Source: Thalassotalea sp. (lineage in GTDB: Bacteria; Pseudomonadota; Gammaproteobacteria; Enterobacterales; Alteromonadaceae). Taken from it: a DNA stretch of 31,839 bases. A program made the translations under genes and the position numbers. Below the pieces are notes generated by a model that did not search any database, was not told the origin of the DNA, and saw only the letters and a program-made list of their open reading frames with translations. Positions 733-26,765 of the stretch are shown one piece after another (position 1 is the stretch's first letter; each line of letters begins with the position of its first letter). Location: assembly GCA_050300315.1 (NCBI GenBank), contig JBNKXM010000001.1, forward strand, positions 1 through 31,839, read 5' to 3'.

Positions 733-2340
733 TTATTTAGCTCCGATAGATTTTACTTCATCAGCGTTAAGTCCGCCGATAAATGTTTTAAAGTTCGACA
801 TAACTCCATAGCAATTTTGTGAATCATCCGGTGCACTACCTAAATTAATTAACCCTGTTAAATCTAATTCGCTTGTAACAGTGTCGGCAATATCAAAAAT
901 CAATTGCTTGTTAACGTAACCTTTAATGTTCGTAGGTGTTCTTTCTATGACAAAATCATAAGACAGGTTAGGGATGATCGGGTCAAGCAACGTATGTAAA
1001 ACAGAAGAACCCATACGCACCTGAAAAAGTCCGCTAGTGGACTGCACTATGTCGAAAGTAAAAGCAGGGTTAGTGTCAACGCCCAATATAAATTGATTAC
1101 CCGTAGTATTACCTAAAGACCTGTACGTAAATGCTATTGCAATAGTATCATCTAAACTAGTGATATTGTTCAGCACTGTAGTAGATATTAAGTCAGAAGC
1201 CCTTGCAAAAGTCGATGTGGTTGTTTTGGCGTAGCTAGAAGGGAATGGTAAATCTTCAAGCTGGACTTTGTCTATACCAATACCAAACCCTGAAACTCCT
1301 TGGTAAAGTATTGTACCAGAAGCGTCTATTGCGATCGCAAACTGAGCACTGTTGCCGCCTATACTTGTGCAAACATAGCTGTAAGAAACAATGAACTTAC
1401 CTCCTTCAATAGCCCTAATACTCGGGTTTATCGCATCAACACCGGATGTTGTGACCGTACCAGCCTCTAAGTCAAAGACTACGTTACTGTTCGGTATTGT
1501 TGCGATTCCTGACCACAGATACTTTCGTTCTTTTGCAAAACACTCTGCTTGTACTGTGTAAGTTTTACCTACTATTTGGGTGGCGGACTGTGACATGAAG
1601 TGCATACCGTTTGAGCCATCTTCATCTATACCGTCAACGCTGACGGTAATGCCTGTTTTACTCCAAGCAGCATTGCTAAAATCTTCAGAGTGTAATAACT
1701 CGTTAGTGGTCGCACCTTCCATTAAGTACCCGTCTGATTCTTCACGCAGTACATCGTTGTTTACAGTGCGGAGTACGCCGTACCTATCTCTATATGACCC
1801 ACCGCTAGCTCTTGTTGAACTTAGTAGGTCGCTCAATTTAACAACTGGCGCATTAGGTGCTAGGACGTGACATAACGGGTTATTAAGCTTTGTTAAATTA
1901 ACATTAGCCATATTAACATCGTTGATCACCTGCCAATCTGAATTGCCTTCACTAGGTTCGCTTAGCGTTATATCAGCTATCGCCACTTCAACGCGCCACG
2001 TGCTCCCGTTGTGCGAGTAAGAACTCCCAACTGTTGCAGCCCCTGTAGCGTCTGACCATCTACCTTTGAAATTAGCTAAACTTTGAGCTGTTAAAGCGCT
2101 GTCCGCTGCGTTATTCGCACTAGCTAGCGCATCTACGGCACTAGCTGCCGCAGCATCTTTGTAGCCATTAACCAAACCGACATCAATATTAAACTCTGCG
2201 ATTGATGTGTTAATTCCTGGCACAAGCGAAACAGACTGATAAGTAGTCCATGTTACAGCGTTGGTTGAAAAATCCTCAGCCGACTGAGTGTTCGGATCTG
2301 GAACTACGCCACCATAAACTGGAACAGTTGATACTGTCAT
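733..2340 (-). CDS. Tail fibre / receptor-binding protein with a probable C-terminal lectin-like (LamG/ConA-type) beta-sandwich
   Basis: 535 aa with an Ala-rich N-terminal stalk and phage fibre motifs (TRASGGSYRDRYGVL, NELLHSEDFSNAAW, QLEDLPFPSSYAKTT); located after the tape measure and tip genes. Confidence 0.75.
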   Translation of the reverse strand: MTVSTVPVYGGVVPDPNTQSAEDFSTNAVTWTTYQSVSLVPGINTSIAEFNIDVGLVNGYKDAAAASAVDALASANNAADSALTAQSLANFKGRWSDATGAATVGSSYSHNGSTWRVEVAIADITLSEPSEGNSDWQVINDVNMANVNLTKLNNPLCHVLAPNAPVVKLSDLLSSTRASGGSYRDRYGVLRTVNNDVLREESDGYLMEGATTNELLHSEDFSNAAWSKTGITVSVDGIDEDGSNGMHFMSQSATQIVGKTYTVQAECFAKERKYLWSGIATIPNSNVVFDLEAGTVTTSGVDAINPSIRAIEGGKFIVSYSYVCTSIGGNSAQFAIAIDASGTILYQGVSGFGIGIDKVQLEDLPFPSSYAKTTTSTFARASDLISTTVLNNITSLDDTIAIAFTYRSLGNTTGNQFILGVDTNPAFTFDIVQSTSGLFQVRMGSSVLHTLLDPIIPNLSYDFVIERTPTNIKGYVNKQLIFDIADTVTSELDLTGLINLGSAPDDSQNCYGVMSNFKTFIGGLNADEVKSIGAK

Positions 2341-3261
2341 TTAAATTAACTCCTGCACATCGAAATTAAGTGCTATTTTGCTTGGTGAATTTATCTCACC
2401 TATTTTGTAGTTACTATAATAACCGAAAGTTGTCATTGCGTCATTAACATCAGTTTCGTCGCCAATCCAAACGGTCTCAGTTTGTGATAATGATTTCATT
2501 AGATTTTTAACATAAAGGGATTTTTGTCTGTCTATAAAACATTTATATTCCATGACATCAGCAGTATCACGCCTAGTAATATCAAACCCTCCAAACCCGT
2601 CGCTAGTTCTTATGCTGTAATCGACACCAGTTATTCCAGAGCCGTAAGCTGTTTCGCCTAAATCAAGATATGAACCTAGCACCAAATTGCCAAAACCAAT
2701 ATCGCCGCCACCAGTGACAGATATTGTAATGTCTTTGGCAATGACTGGAGGCAAATCAGTTAGCACAAATCTTGTAATAGCAATAACAGGTGAGAAAAAG
2801 AAATAATACCAATCTGTACGCGCTGAGTTATCCCTCATTGATATATCACGATCGTATATATCACTCACACCATCATTGACAGTTACGTTAATTGCATCAG
2901 CTCCAGTAATATTAAACCCTGCTAAAGAGTTAGTTAATGTTGCTGGTGTTATTGTCACATCAAGAGTAGTGTTATCGAAAGATTGCGTACCGTTCTTGTT
3001 GTCGAACATAGCCCATGCGTTAGTAGGACCAATATCAACCCAAGTCGCAGGATTAGCATCTACTCCAACCTCAGGATCGTCAGTTGTACTAGGGTCAGCC
3101 ACAACTCGATATCGCCTATGTGTCGATGACTTAATGCGCTCATCACCTAGATTGTAAGTGCCAGCAGACCATTCTATCTCGCCGTATGCCGCATCTGGTT
3201 CAGGGATTGTTGAGCTAGTTAAAACAGCATCATTAACTGTTATTGGGTTAATTACTCTCAT
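2341..3261 (-). CDS. Tail-tip / distal tail structural protein
   Basis: 306 aa, immediately downstream of the tape measure gene (1-nt overlap); Trp-containing CBM-like N-terminus (WSAGTYNLGD...TWVDIGPTNAWAMFD). Confidence 0.6.
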   Translation of the reverse strand: MRVINPITVNDAVLTSSTIPEPDAAYGEIEWSAGTYNLGDERIKSSTHRRYRVVADPSTTDDPEVGVDANPATWVDIGPTNAWAMFDNKNGTQSFDNTTLDVTITPATLTNSLAGFNITGADAINVTVNDGVSDIYDRDISMRDNSARTDWYYFFFSPVIAITRFVLTDLPPVIAKDITISVTGGGDIGFGNLVLGSYLDLGETAYGSGITGVDYSIRTSDGFGGFDITRRDTADVMEYKCFIDRQKSLYVKNLMKSLSQTETVWIGDETDVNDAMTTFGYYSNYKIGEINSPSKIALNFDVQELI

Positions 3262-23711: not shown

Positions 23712-23879
23712 ATGACAATCCCATACGAACTATTACTGGAAGCTAACGCCAAAGTAACCAAAGAAACAAAAAAGCGCAGACTTAGCGAGCGCGAGCAAAA
23801 AGCGCGCTCAATTAAACAACGATTAGACCAACTGAAATTAAAACGTGAATTAATGGAGATAGAAAATGAGCACAGCTAA
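23712..23879 (+). CDS. Small basic coiled-coil protein, 55 aa (not in the ORF track)
   Basis: AAGGAG RBS; MTIPYELLLEANAKVTKETKKRRLSEREQKARS... Confidence 0.6.
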   Translation: MTIPYELLLEANAKVTKETKKRRLSEREQKARSIKQRLDQLKLKRELMEIENEHS

Positions 23880-24327
23880 AAAGATTGAAGAACTACGCGC
23901 AAAGATTGATGAATTAGAAGCGCAGTTGAAAGCAGAACAAGATCCGATGTTTGATGATATTTATGTTGGTGATGATTATCTTTTTATATGTAGTCGTTTC
24001 AATGTATCGTTGAGTAATCATATAGGGCACGAGTTAGACGAAGAAAAACTAAAAATCGCAAACGCCTTCAAAGACAAAAAACAAGCACAAGCCTGTGCTG
24101 ATTATTTAAAAGATCGATTTTGGTTTATCAGGAAAGCAGTTGAGTTTGCTGATGAGTATGAGTTTAAGCGTAGAAATAGAAATTATTATGTTTTTTATAA
24201 TACTGGCGAAAACAAGTGGGGTTATGATCTCAATGACGATTTTAATGGAGGCTCTATCTACATGACTGAACAAAACGCCACTAAATTCTGTGAATGGCTA
24301 AACAAGCATAAGCCAGAGGGGTTTTAG
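23866..24327 (+). CDS. Hypothetical protein with an N-terminal coiled coil
   Basis: 153 aa, GGAG RBS. Confidence 0.7.
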   Translation: MSTAKKIEELRAKIDELEAQLKAEQDPMFDDIYVGDDYLFICSRFNVSLSNHIGHELDEEKLKIANAFKDKKQAQACADYLKDRFWFIRKAVEFADEYEFKRRNRNYYVFYNTGENKWGYDLNDDFNGGSIYMTEQNATKFCEWLNKHKPEGF

Positions 24328-24328
24328 T

Positions 24329-24631
24329 ATGATCACTATAAAACCAAAACTGTCCGAAGAATCATTTGAGGTAGGTGAATATTATGCTTATCCTAAATTC
24401 AGGAATTGCGAAGATAATTTAAGGTTTTATTATGAGCCAGATAATGCCCAACAAAATGCTTTTATAGAAATGGTAAAAGATAAAAGCATGATTTGTGATA
24501 TTGAGATTGAAATAGAGCGCGATATGATTCTGAATATAAGTGCCTTTGTTAATTTTGTGAAAATATCATGGGAAGTCGACAACTGCGCATATGTAGAGCT
24601 TGAAGTTATTATTCCACCCCAACACGCCTAG
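24329..24631 (+). CDS. Hypothetical protein; 3' end overlaps the head morphogenesis gene
   Basis: 100-aa ORF, 23-nt convergent overlap. Confidence 0.6.
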   Translation: MITIKPKLSEESFEVGEYYAYPKFRNCEDNLRFYYEPDNAQQNAFIEMVKDKSMICDIEIEIERDMILNISAFVNFVKISWEVDNCAYVELEVIIPPQHA

Positions 24632-26765
24632 CAATAATAGGGTGGCGCTTGATAATCTCGTCAAGCGATAATGGGTTGCCGTTAATGTCACTAAACTGCT
24701 TTAACGTCAATCCACCCTCTTTAAATAGTTTAAACCTCTTAGCGCCTAGCGTATCTTTAATATAATAATCTGGCTGTTCGCGTAGCCACTTATCAAGAGG
24801 TGTATTCGCGGCTATCTGCTCAGGCGTGAAGATGTTCTTGTCTTTTTTGCCGCGGTATCTTACTTGGCTTTTAGTTCGCAACCTTGATTTTCTTTCGTTG
24901 AATGCTTCCTCGCCACTTTCTTTAGCGCCTAAAGCCGCGCGTGTGCCAACTGGATCTAATCCTTTTGGCACGGCTATACGTCTTGTGCGGCAATTGTGAA
25001 CAACAATATTATCAATTAGATAAGTGTTATCATCTTCAACCTCTAAGTTGTAAACGTCCTTGTTATATTCTACAATTGAAATGTCACTTACAATTGAGGT
25101 ATTCCAATTATGTTTAAAGGTAGCGATCTTACCAACAAAGATTTCTTTCACTCTTTTCTTAAAGAACACAACCACATTAGAAGAAAAACACTTCGCGCTA
25201 TCGAGCGCGAATTTAATCTTGCTAACGGAACTATGAGTAGATGGTGCCGAGTGCATGACATTAAACCTCTTAGTAAGTCCGAGGCTGCTAGAGAGGCTGC
25301 AAAAATTAAGGTGTCTAATGGTTTGTGTGTTGGCTCTAACCATTGGGCTTATGGTATGACCAAGAAAACCTCCGAAATTCATGCTAGGCATTCTGAAAGG
25401 ATGGCTAGCAACAACCCTGTCCATAACCCCAAGACTAAAGCAAAGATCTTGGCAACTATGAGAGATATTTACAGGGAAACAAAAGTTTTTGGCGAAGAAT
25501 CTTTCAAGGAGTTCTTTGGCGATTCCTTTTTTATCCATCAATATATTATTGGAGATTCCATTAGGGATTTTGTCAATGTCGAGAACAAGATCGTTGTCGA
25601 GATCGATGGAAGAGGCCACGCTTCCAGATTCGAAAGCGACCTTAGTAAAGACCTCTTCGCTATCGAACAAGGATGGGTAATCATACGGGTTAGCTTCGAC
25701 AACAGGCGACCTATTAGTGATTGGACTTTTCTCTCCGTAGTACTCAAAAAGATGATCCCCAACTTTGATTTCATCGGCTCTGACCCATCCAGCCCCATCA
25801 AGAAGTACAGGATGCTCATCCGTAACTCTGATTTCCCTACCGGATTTAAAACGAATAACCCTTATGACGCTAGAATCGTTAGACTTTCTCATAACAGTTA
25901 ATACTTTTTTAAATCTACCTTTATGAGTTAAAACCTCATCACCAACGGCAACTTCCTCTATCGGTTTGTTGCCGTTTTTAGTTAAAACCCTTTCACCTTC
26001 CGCGACAGCATTGAAATGCAACGGAGGGCGTGGTGCTTTTAGATCGTTAACTGAAAACCTACGCGACTTTTCATTCATTGTGCTGATTGACTGACAAATA
26101 TTTGACGTTCTTGAATCAAATACTATGACATAGAAATACTCATCAAGAACATCTTTATTATCGTTTATCATAGCTTCGTTAGCTGCTGCTGCATAATGCT
26201 GATAACCAGTACGAGCTAATGCCTCTGCTTCACGTTTTAGCACACCATCAAACGTTGTGCGAATATCGCGTGACATTTCGTTAATAGTTGCGCCGCGAGA
26301 ATACCCGGTCTTAACAATGCCGTTAATCGCACGTTTACGGCTATCTAAATTAGCATGATAAAACTCTGACCATGTACCAGCATTAACGCGCTTACCACTT
26401 TCTAGTGACATTAACGCGTTGTTAACGTATGAAGCTATTTTCTTTTCTGCTGGCGTTGATAGCTTGCTAGCAATAGCGGCACCGATAAATTGAGCTTGCC
26501 ATTGTGCTTCGTAGGTTGCGAGGGGCAACAAAGACTCATTAGTCATTGTTAACCAACCACCGTTATCCTCGATAGCTTTATTGATCGCAACTAATACTCT
26601 ATTGAGTTGAGCTTTGGTTGTGATTGATTCTTCAGCCTGGAGTAATTGACGAATAGCTTTGTAGGTGTCAACTAATGACGGATAAACATACGAGTTTATG
26701 CCGCCACTAGCTAAGCGATTGATATATAATTCGTGTTGCAGGAATTCATCGAGGTTTAGAGCCAT
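24609..26765 (-). CDS. Head morphogenesis / minor capsid protein (Mu gpF / SPP1 gp7 family), intein-containing precursor; predicted spliced product 379 aa
   Basis: AEALARTGY, VFDSRTSNIC and the split PPLHFN|CRTRRI motif. Confidence 0.9.
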   Translation of the reverse strand: MALNLDEFLQHELYINRLASGGINSYVYPSLVDTYKAIRQLLQAEESITTKAQLNRVLVAINKAIEDNGGWLTMTNESLLPLATYEAQWQAQFIGAAIASKLSTPAEKKIASYVNNALMSLESGKRVNAGTWSEFYHANLDSRKRAINGIVKTGYSRGATINEMSRDIRTTFDGVLKREAEALARTGYQHYAAAANEAMINDNKDVLDEYFYVIVFDSRTSNICQSISTMNEKSRRFSVNDLKAPRPPLHFNAVAEGERVLTKNGNKPIEEVAVGDEVLTHKGRFKKVLTVMRKSNDSSVIRVIRFKSGREIRVTDEHPVLLDGAGWVRADEIKVGDHLFEYYGEKSPITNRSPVVEANPYDYPSLFDSEEVFTKVAFESGSVASSIDLDNDLVLDIDKIPNGISNNILMDKKGIAKELLERFFAKNFCFPVNISHSCQDLCFSLGVMDRVVASHPFRMPSMNFGGFLGHTISPMVRANTQTIRHLNFCSLSSSLGLTKRFNVMHSAPSTHSSVSKIKFALDSAKCFSSNVVVFFKKRVKEIFVGKIATFKHNWNTSIVSDISIVEYNKDVYNLEVEDDNTYLIDNIVVHNCRTRRIAVPKGLDPVGTRAALGAKESGEEAFNERKSRLRTKSQVRYRGKKDKNIFTPEQIAANTPLDKWLREQPDYYIKDTLGAKRFKLFKEGGLTLKQFSDINGNPLSLDEIIKRHPIIARRVGVE
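25048..25100 (+). promoter_or_regulatory. Antisense sigma70-like promoter and Shine-Dalgarno site inside the intein coding sequence
   Basis: TTGTAA (25048-25053), N17, TACAAT (25071-25076); GAGGT (25096-25100) 9 nt before ATG 25110. Confidence 0.65.
25110..25901 (+). CDS. Putative homing endonuclease (HTH plus NUMOD3-like repeats plus DUF559/Vsr-like EDxHD nuclease) encoded antisense within the intein
   Basis: LRAIEREFNLANGTMSRW; GSNHWAYG and SNNPVHNPKTKAKI; QYIIG...DF....KIVVEIDGRGH......D..KD....EQGWVIIRV; has its own promoter and RBS. Confidence 0.85.
   Translation: MFKGSDLTNKDFFHSFLKEHNHIRRKTLRAIEREFNLANGTMSRWCRVHDIKPLSKSEAAREAAKIKVSNGLCVGSNHWAYGMTKKTSEIHARHSERMASNNPVHNPKTKAKILATMRDIYRETKVFGEESFKEFFGDSFFIHQYIIGDSIRDFVNVENKIVVEIDGRGHASRFESDLSKDLFAIEQGWVIIRVSFDNRRPISDWTFLSVVLKKMIPNFDFIGSDPSSPIKKYRMLIRNSDFPTGFKTNNPYDARIVRLSHNS

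Follow-up and report, generated by a model that had tools for sequence, protein, structure and literature searches.

The contig JBNKXM010000001.1 of a Thalassotalea sp. assembly (GCA_050300315.1; 728 contigs, 2.7 Mb) was analysed over its entire 31.8 kb (31,839 nucleotides), and this stretch is called the window below. It looks like a fragment of a tailed-phage genome with the virion genes on the minus strand, and the contigs of its phage group have a low GC content of 40%. Our subject is a minus-strand gene for a minor capsid protein which is interrupted by an intein, together with a second open reading frame (ORF) that lies inside the intein on the opposite strand. The 718-amino-acid (aa) product of the interrupted gene matches phrog_241 'head morphogenesis' at 1.9e-66, while the Pfam match to Phage_Mu_F is weak, at 25.5 bits under a cut-off of 29.6. 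An initial annotation, made from the letters of the window, had placed an intein with Hint blocks at 24993-26009 and a 263-aa reverse ORF at 25110-25901, in exact codon register with it. Both placements hold. The intein takes up exactly 339 codons, from 26009 down to 24993, reading AVAEG... to ...VVHN and followed by Cys; it matches Intein_splicing (PF14890; score in Table 1), and the host ORF also matches PT-HINT (36.9 bits, cut-off 27.7). The reverse ORF starts at the first ATG past an in-frame TGA, and its register is exact since (26765-25112) is divisible by 3.

The intein boundaries can be read from alleles that lack it. A search with the N-extein gave 24 intein-less homologues, mostly 364-388 aa long. 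The best of them, P0005, has 379 aa, which is exactly the length predicted for the spliced product (718-339=379) and which bears out the product length expected in the initial annotation. Its gene (L031:6001-7140) is collinear with the joined exteins of the window and 89.5% identical to them in DNA. Its empty junction reads ...PPLHF-R↓C-RTRR (the arrow marks the junction); at position -1, G or S is found in further empty alleles. The consensus of the empty site, HF[R/G/S]↓CRTRR, fits the boundaries of the window intein. Sequence comparison therefore establishes where the intein starts and ends, and that it is present in some alleles and absent from others. The features of the window and of its relatives are collected in Table 1.

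Table 1. Positions of the features in the window and in related loci (L, locus handle; HEG, homing endonuclease gene; HEN, homing endonuclease; dN/dS, ratio of nonsynonymous to synonymous substitution rates; pLDDT, predicted local distance difference test score of AlphaFold2)
Feature	Position	Strand	Remarks
Host gene, Mu-F / SPP1 gp7-type head morphogenesis (minor capsid) protein precursor	24609..26765	-	718-aa ORF
N-extein, 252 aa, last residues ...PPLHFN	26010..26765	-	94% identical to P0005 over N-extein query
Intein, 339 aa, Ala1 ... His-Asn, then Cys+1	24993..26009	-	Intein_splicing 48.8 bits, cut-off 35.8
Hint N-terminal lobe (Hint-N), residues 1-92, blocks A, B (TDEH), N4	25734..26009	-	pLDDT 77-88; T63, H66, P67 invariant
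In-frame 'linker', residues 93-299, antisense read-through of endonuclease gene	25113..25733	-	pLDDT 25-40; no Pfam domain
Hint C-terminal lobe (Hint-C), residues 300-339, blocks F and G (...VYNLEVEDDNTYL...VVHN)	24993..25112	-	pLDDT 72-88; V324, D327, Y330, H338, N339 invariant
C-extein, 127 aa and stop codon, first residues CRTRR	24609..24992	-	collinear with P0005
Antisense homing endonuclease gene, 263 aa, exact codon register with intein frame	25110..25901	+	DUF559 E=2.2e-9; plus-frame dN/dS 0.13
Vsr/DUF559-type nuclease core, HEG residues 134-197	25509..25700	+	Pfam, profile against PDB, Foldseek; E164, D166, H170, D181 invariant
C-terminal HEG tail, encoded opposite Hint-N	25734..25901	+	dN/dS in both frames; Hint frame more constrained here
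Shine-Dalgarno GAGGT, 9 nt ahead of ATG, opposite Hint-C codons	25096..25100	+	conserved in homologues
Promoter-like TTGTAA-N17-TACAAT, opposite Hint block F region	25048..25076	+	found by scan; function uncertain
Antisense nuclease ORF in Vibrio phages	MG592630 L001:2935-3675; MG592631 L002:2953-3690; MG592457 L003:2953-3690		245-246 aa, intact
Partly split	L011, L013/14/36, L015/37/38, L016, L017/40, L018, L034, L041/42		host frame broken by 4-13 forbidden codons
Fully fractured with antisense HEG	L046:2750-4596; L047; L048:2688-4539		Mu-like phage head modules
In-frame sense HEN	L022:1025-3166; L025:1118-3802	+	Mu-F-like; DUF559/Vsr domain inside intein, site HPN↓C...VHN↓CRC
Same-strand out-of-frame	L020:1579-3651; L024:1528-3699; L027:1600-3672; L030:1591-3639	+	clamp-loader (DNA_pol3_delta2/AAA) inteins; same layout in L021, L028, L029
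Same-strand out-of-frame	L023:1645-3105	+	inside SNF2/DEAD helicase intein

What does the plus-strand ORF encode? Its residues 134-197 match DUF559 (PF04480) with 37.6 bits over a cut-off of 20.6, and its relatives reach up to 52 bits and match Vsr and MTES_1575 as well. A profile of 14 sequences, run against the PDB sequences, found the DUF559 protein 3hrl at 4.6e-10 and the catalytic domain of I-Bth0305I (3r3p) at 7.3e-5. The motif E-x-D-G-x-x-H aligns with the motifs of both structures; its E164, D166 and H170, and D181, are invariant in the 14 sequences, and G167, G169 and R173 do not vary across the relatives either. AlphaFold2 models the 263-aa product with a mean pLDDT of 81.5; in the model, a helical N-terminal half precedes an alpha/beta core. 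In Foldseek, 3r3p ranks first with a probability of 0.97 (TM 0.52), 3hrl has 0.92 (TM 0.59), and Vsr itself (1vsr) is also listed. The DUF559/Vsr-like core named in the initial annotation is thus found alike by profile, model and structure search, whereas its labels 'NUMOD3-like' and 'HTH' (helix-turn-helix) have no Pfam support at E<=1. No PDB match was obtained for the N-terminal region. The helical domain there is modelled with confidence and may bind DNA; the ORF also has a conserved HSERMKxNNP motif. The last ~55 codons of the ORF are an overprinted tail, whose conserved KYRVLIR is encoded antisense to Hint block B. Together with the substitution pattern described below, these results show that the plus-strand ORF is a Vsr/DUF559/I-Bth0305I-like nuclease under strong purifying selection.

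There is a further question, why is the host frame open across a whole gene on the other strand? No stop codon interrupts the intein frame, since TTA, CTA and TCA do not occur in the nuclease gene. As the initial annotation had pointed out, these three codons are missing from all 263 codons of the ORF, while they make up 6.85% of the codons in 29 other window ORFs. The 13 Leu codons are CTT (7), CTC (4) and TTG (2), and none of the 25 Ser codons is TCA; in the 29 other ORFs, TTA is the top Leu codon (254/609) and TCA the top Ser codon (172/567). Conditioned on the amino-acid sequence of the ORF and the codon usage of the window, the chance of an open register frame is P=1.4e-9. The same calculation gives 3e-7 and 1.5e-8 for two Vibrio phage loci, L001 and L002. 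Not one of 2428 stretches of 263 codons in other genes is free of the three codons, and the longest free run has 87 codons. These forbidden codons are also absent from all contiguous relatives (L001-L010, L019, L032, L033, L035 and L039). Where the antisense register frame is unneeded there are 8-18 of them, spread along the gene, namely 8-12 in the fully fractured L046 and L047 and 10-18 in the same-strand relatives. Because the codon-avoidance tests and the unconstrained relatives agree in this way, we conclude that the double open frame is upheld by selection on the synonymous codons of the nuclease gene, which keeps the host frame open.

The exact register puts plus position 3 opposite minus position 1, so that the substitution pattern identifies the frame under constraint. 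The main comparison was made between the window and L032, the closest relative (73% identity between the HEGs). In the Hint-N region outside the ORF overlap, dN/dS is 0.15 in the host frame and 0.84 in the plus frame; under the C-terminal tail of the ORF, the values are 0.39 and 0.76. The order is inverted opposite the nuclease core (0.84 in the host frame, 0.13 in the plus frame) and opposite the N-terminal half of the ORF (1.49 and 0.13). Outside the intein, the N-extein has proportions of nonsynonymous and synonymous differences (pN and pS) of 0.22 and 0.75 in the host frame. Over the core, 11 further pairs give 0.16-0.30 for the plus frame and 0.7-2.6 for the minus frame, and over the tail other pairs give 0.24-0.6 for the minus frame against 0.36-1.2 for the plus frame. 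Selection switches strand at the region boundaries. The ~207 in-frame intein residues opposite the HEG are shown to evolve without amino-acid constraint, and in the AlphaFold2 model of the intein itself, from which the pLDDT values of lobes and linker in Table 1 are taken, they have a low score along their entire length and no predicted fold. Judged by dN/dS and pLDDT, the real gene in this region is the nuclease, and the intein carries its in-frame middle as a passenger peptide. The initial annotation had described this middle as antisense sequence, tolerated as a passenger under selection on both strands, and had named a conserved folded domain as the outcome that would speak against this; the middle is unfolded and unconstrained, and is kept merely free of stops.

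The Hint domain deserves attention at its first residue. TDEH (the TxxH of block B), VVHN and Cys+1 are invariant in 8/8 aligned inteins. The Cys, Ser or Thr at position 1 that marks class 1 inteins is replaced by Ala in the window, and close relatives alternate between Ser1 and Ala1. Class 3 inteins are marked by a WCT triplet, the Cys being at position 4 of block F. This signature is absent here, as block F reads VYNLEV; where Cys F:4 would be, the window and most of its relatives have Asn, and one relative has Asp. Ala1 and Cys+1 without a class 3 signature suggest a class-2-like splicing of the window intein, by direct attack of Cys+1, and relatives with Ser1 could form an ester at residue 1 instead. 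Given Ala1, we infer the splicing competence of the window intein from two things, the conservation of the Hint blocks and the open frame that has been maintained.

How might the nuclease gene be expressed? A GGAGG-type Shine-Dalgarno sequence stands 6-9 nt ahead of the start in 8/8 loci examined. The promoter-like site in Table 1 is conserved in homologues, and the Hint coding on the other strand can explain this conservation. No plus-strand terminator is predicted before 25110, including the interval between the nuclease ORF and a three-gene plus-strand cassette at 23712-24631, so read-through transcription of the nuclease gene is possible. This cassette runs in the same direction as the nuclease ORF and converges on the 3' end of the Mu-F gene. 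A perfect 8-bp stem at 25192-25211, in the codons for LRAIERE, resembles a terminator on both strands; it is unconserved in 17 homologues and was set aside as probably due to chance.

Is the layout restricted to this contig? When 50,697 phage records were searched by tblastn with the HEG, the ORF came up with 29-31% identity in three Vibrio phages, all of them from the Nahant collection (accessions in Table 1). Their host proteins, annotated as 'hint domain' or 'coil containing' and 697-708 aa long, have the intein at the same site (HxN↓A...VHN↓CRS). As the initial annotation had foreseen, annotators miss the nuclease gene: in 3/3 of these GenBank records the Hint-bearing coding sequence alone is listed. 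Four metagenomic proteins on short contigs are 43-54% identical to the HEG, and the opposite strand of each contig is open end to end, in the order extein, Hint-N, junk, Hint-C, extein. The contiguous cases L009, L010, L019, L032, L033=L044, L035 and L039 came from scans that covered viral, metagenome and genome contigs. In L039 (1061-3988, minus strand) the antisense-HEG intein sits in a host ORF of 976 aa, the usual size being ~700 aa. Over all homologues in the same antisense arrangement, identity to the window HEG is 28-73%; the insertion site in the Mu-F gene is common to all relatives, the layout occurs in more than ten metagenomic loci, and the nuclease ORF is intact in more than 15 loci. 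Megablast of the gene against the phage records gave no match, and neither did the viral-contig scan with the single protein, whereas the alignment as query did match. A profile search over 1.84 billion representatives, with an alignment that left out three rows from loci in GenBank records, gave 48 clusters at E<=1e-30, and in about 36 of these the match runs through the tail opposite Hint-N. By this similarity, many more instances of the antisense layout are suggested among the 48 clusters.

Relatives of the nuclease also occur in other arrangements. The host gene is continuous in the window and broken, as in a fractured gene, in L011, L013, L015-L018, L034 and L046-L048. In the partly split relatives, nearly all forbidden codons lie opposite the N-terminal half of the nuclease gene and almost none opposite the core, while the fully fractured relatives do carry forbidden codons opposite the core. 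Note that the absence from the nuclease half of split forms has a per-locus P of merely 0.15-0.007, because this half has few Leu and Ser. Six split loci were looked at in detail. Each has an ORF for N-extein and Hint-N, followed by a separate ORF for the C-terminal intein part (IntC), whose Met stands 56-59 aa before HN↓C in 5/6 loci and 64 aa before it in L017. An SD-like (Shine-Dalgarno-like) GGAG/GAGG precedes the IntC start in three of these loci, and the start context in L011 is the antisense of conserved HGKSLR codons. These relatives look like split inteins. Programmed frameshifting, with a minus-strand ORF in another frame bridging the gap, was rejected as the default explanation for them, since pyrimidine-rich antisense sequence opens frames anyway and IntC starts exist. 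The HEG ORFs of L011, L013 and L015-L018 lie near 2300-3250 in each locus. In L046-L048, the N-terminal part (IntN) ends directly after block N4, an antisense nuclease gene of 214-217 aa follows with almost no overlap, and a gene of 76-94 aa for IntC and C-extein comes last.

Two further relatives have the nuclease as an in-frame domain, and in several the nuclease ORF (200-290 aa) is nested out of frame on the same strand. L025, one of the in-frame forms, has an ADP-ribosyltransferase exoenzyme domain (PF03496, 1.7e-15) at its C-terminal end. L020-L030 had been considered as a 'free-standing' outgroup, which was rejected when Pfam showed nesting out of frame in clamp-loader and helicase inteins. 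L012 (2075-3738) has a GC content of 57-59% and a nuclease ORF with a 30-residue insertion; its N-extein/Hint-N and Hint-C/C-extein are in different frames and its C-terminal junction is VVSN↓C, not HN↓C, so it may be a degenerate or frameshifted copy. The free-standing relatives found are distant ones alone, such as one among tRNA genes in Rhizobium phage RHph_TM61, and every closer relative is associated with an intein. A maximum-likelihood tree divides the antisense clade (support 92/94) into a window-like contiguous subclade and a mixed subclade of contiguous and split forms (95/92), and the in-frame forms are its sister; the tree does not polarise the states. A free-standing nuclease gene could conceivably have invaded a mini-intein backwards, as had been proposed in the initial annotation. 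Another tentative idea, which we regard as possible and rather doubtful, is that the DUF559 relatives at one Mu-F intein site form a near-complete series of states: fractured (L046-L048), partly split (the L011 group), contiguous (the window) and in-frame (L022, L025).

Taken together, the locus is probably a mobile intein in a phage Mu-F-type gene, with its homing endonuclease as a separate 263-aa gene on the opposite strand. The intein lies between ...PPLHFN and CRTRR, with the HEG in the usual endonuclease insertion region between blocks N4 and F. In the scenario we propose, the host gene would be translated through the intein to a read-through precursor, in which the two Hint lobes dock on each other, cut out the unfolded loop of 207 residues and ligate the exteins to the 379-aa protein. 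The ban on three sense codons presumably exists because the host needs this precursor. The nuclease would be translated from its own Shine-Dalgarno sequence, on a transcript that may start inside the intein, at the candidate promoter opposite the block F region, or alternatively reads through from the plus-strand cassette. It would cut intein-free alleles near ...CATTT(T/C)NNN↓TG(C/T)CGCACAAG..., and the cleavage of empty alleles would drive the homing of the intein and nuclease as one unit. Of this putative homing, the presence/absence polymorphism of the intein is what was observed. Expression of the nuclease might then be uncoupled from the late host gene, as the initial annotation had put forward.

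Several points weigh against this scenario. Ala1 excludes the standard first step of class 1 splicing. The host frame is broken in some relatives, therefore read-through is not indispensable in every lineage. The Foldseek E-values of the nuclease are weak, 0.07-0.17, because just ~85 residues align, and promoter-like sites in the region are no more frequent than expected after shuffling. As to RNA evidence, the sequence was found in its source DNA run alone. Could the antisense ORF then be a decaying relic of a once-active nuclease, a passive passenger in a vertically inherited intein? The homing-cycle model predicts that endonuclease function is lost after fixation, and the tree is broadly compatible with vertical descent inside the subclades. 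But a relic would hardly keep a plus-frame dN/dS of 0.13-0.30 across long divergence, nor an ORF intact in so many loci with catalytic-type residues and Shine-Dalgarno sequence invariant, and the empty allele in a relative with 89.5% identical exteins indicates ongoing gain and loss. We therefore think this explanation unlikely.

It might also be that the intein does not splice and that the 718-aa protein works unspliced or cleaved at the C-terminal side alone, with the frame open merely for the sake of the C-extein. Ala1 takes away the usual nucleophile, and the WCT signature of class 3 is absent, with Asn in place of Cys F:4. However, purifying selection acts on the Hint lobes (dN/dS 0.15), no variation is seen in TxxH, His-Asn and Cys+1, Ser1 and Ala1 alternate in close relatives, and the split relatives could rejoin their exteins by trans-splicing alone, which leaves a non-splicing intein very unlikely. 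A compositional accident of a purine-rich gene, with the host frame unselected, would be another explanation of the double open frame, and some compositional bias does exist, as other antisense frames are fairly long too (93 aa in the window, 144 aa in L002). It is effectively refuted by the probability of the open frame, which is already conditioned on the amino-acid sequence, by the lack of forbidden codons in every contiguous relative, and by their gene-wide presence in L046, L047 and the same-strand relatives. The mobile intein with an opposite-strand nuclease gene is thus the explanation we retain.

How does the window compare with known systems? Gosselin, Arsenault and Gogarten (bioRxiv 10.1101/2025.01.02.630785) described full inteins of actinophages with antisense LAGLIDADG or VSR-like HENs, including inteins of minor capsid proteins. 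The segments in frame with the host have no fold there, and the same invasion model is proposed. As far as earlier cases are cited there (Gorbalenya 1998, Gogarten 2002), out-of-frame intein endonucleases go back to 1998. The window has an intact ORF, an unsplit intein and an unfolded in-frame segment, and it belongs to their non-canonical inteins with antisense HEN. The observation of the initial annotation is confirmed and its interpretation largely stands, but its remark that it knew of no described case is overtaken by this preprint. As in the actinophages, the intein is unsplit and has an antisense VSR-like ORF in its HEN region, no fold can be recognised in the in-frame middle, and the host is a minor capsid protein of the same family (IPR006528); these authors, too, note that annotation pipelines miss the nuclease genes. 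The phage group is different, with a low GC content (40%) and named relatives that infect Vibrio, and the open antisense frame is statistically extraordinary in such a genome. No sequence homology to the actinophage systems was detected, as tblastn with two family members (the window HEG and that of L012) against the 50,697 phage records gave no actinophage match; the architecture is common to both, which does not imply common descent. The same-strand out-of-frame Vsr-like HEN is not among the layouts listed in that preprint.

Three other systems are close in some respects. For the overlapping, out-of-frame homing endonuclease of the cyanobacterial DnaX intein (Gorbalenya 1998, as cited), Phillips et al. 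(bioRxiv 10.64898/2026.09.14.751524) found that dN/dS depends on the frame. There, too, the intein is contiguous and dN/dS is low in the endonuclease frame and high in the intein frame, but the enzyme is of the LAGLIDADG type, its +2 frame lies on the same strand, and the host gene belongs to a cell. The 'fractured genes' of Dassa et al. 2009 (PMC2677866) have a Vsr-like or GIY-YIG HEG between the halves of a split intein. They share with our locus the marine/phage origin, the Vsr-like family and the HEG in the HEN insertion region, but their three ORFs are on one strand and their intein is split, while here the HEG is antisense and the intein contiguous; L046-L048 are fractured as well, but with an antisense HEG. 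I-Bth0305I (Taylor et al. 2011, PMC3239194; PDB 3r3p) is an EDxHD/Vsr-like homing endonuclease of a group I intron. Its nuclease core is homologous to ours by profile (7.3e-5) and it is the top structural match, but it is intron-encoded and not intein-associated, and the N-terminal region of our HEG has no counterpart among PDB structures.

The antisense layout itself is therefore already known, and the window, as judged from its sequence, represents an independent and well supported group of examples rather than a first one. It adds a second phage group, marine and of low GC, with antisense Vsr-like genes in unsplit inteins. The analysis contributes a codon-avoidance test at 40% GC, the strand-switching dN/dS and the sibling arrangements at one site. 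Since the genome is AT-rich, the open antisense frame cannot be put down to a GC artefact, and since the favourite Leu and Ser codons are totally avoided, this is an unusually clean case of synonymous codon choice dictated by the opposite strand. On the practical side, such inteins may be taken for degenerate ones or for mini-inteins, their nucleases are missed by gene callers, and the related loci are a possible source of new natural split inteins and site-specific nucleases. How intein nuclease domains and split inteins originate has been debated as an open question ever since Dassa et al. 2009 put forward their model, and the contiguous, split, in-frame and out-of-frame loci give material for testing models of endonuclease entry and split-intein origin. 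If the series of states is true and can be polarised, the route from a free-standing nuclease to an intein domain would become visible, as would the origin or healing of split inteins; and the low-GC contiguous forms would be direct evidence that the needs of the opposite strand shape the codon usage of a selfish gene.

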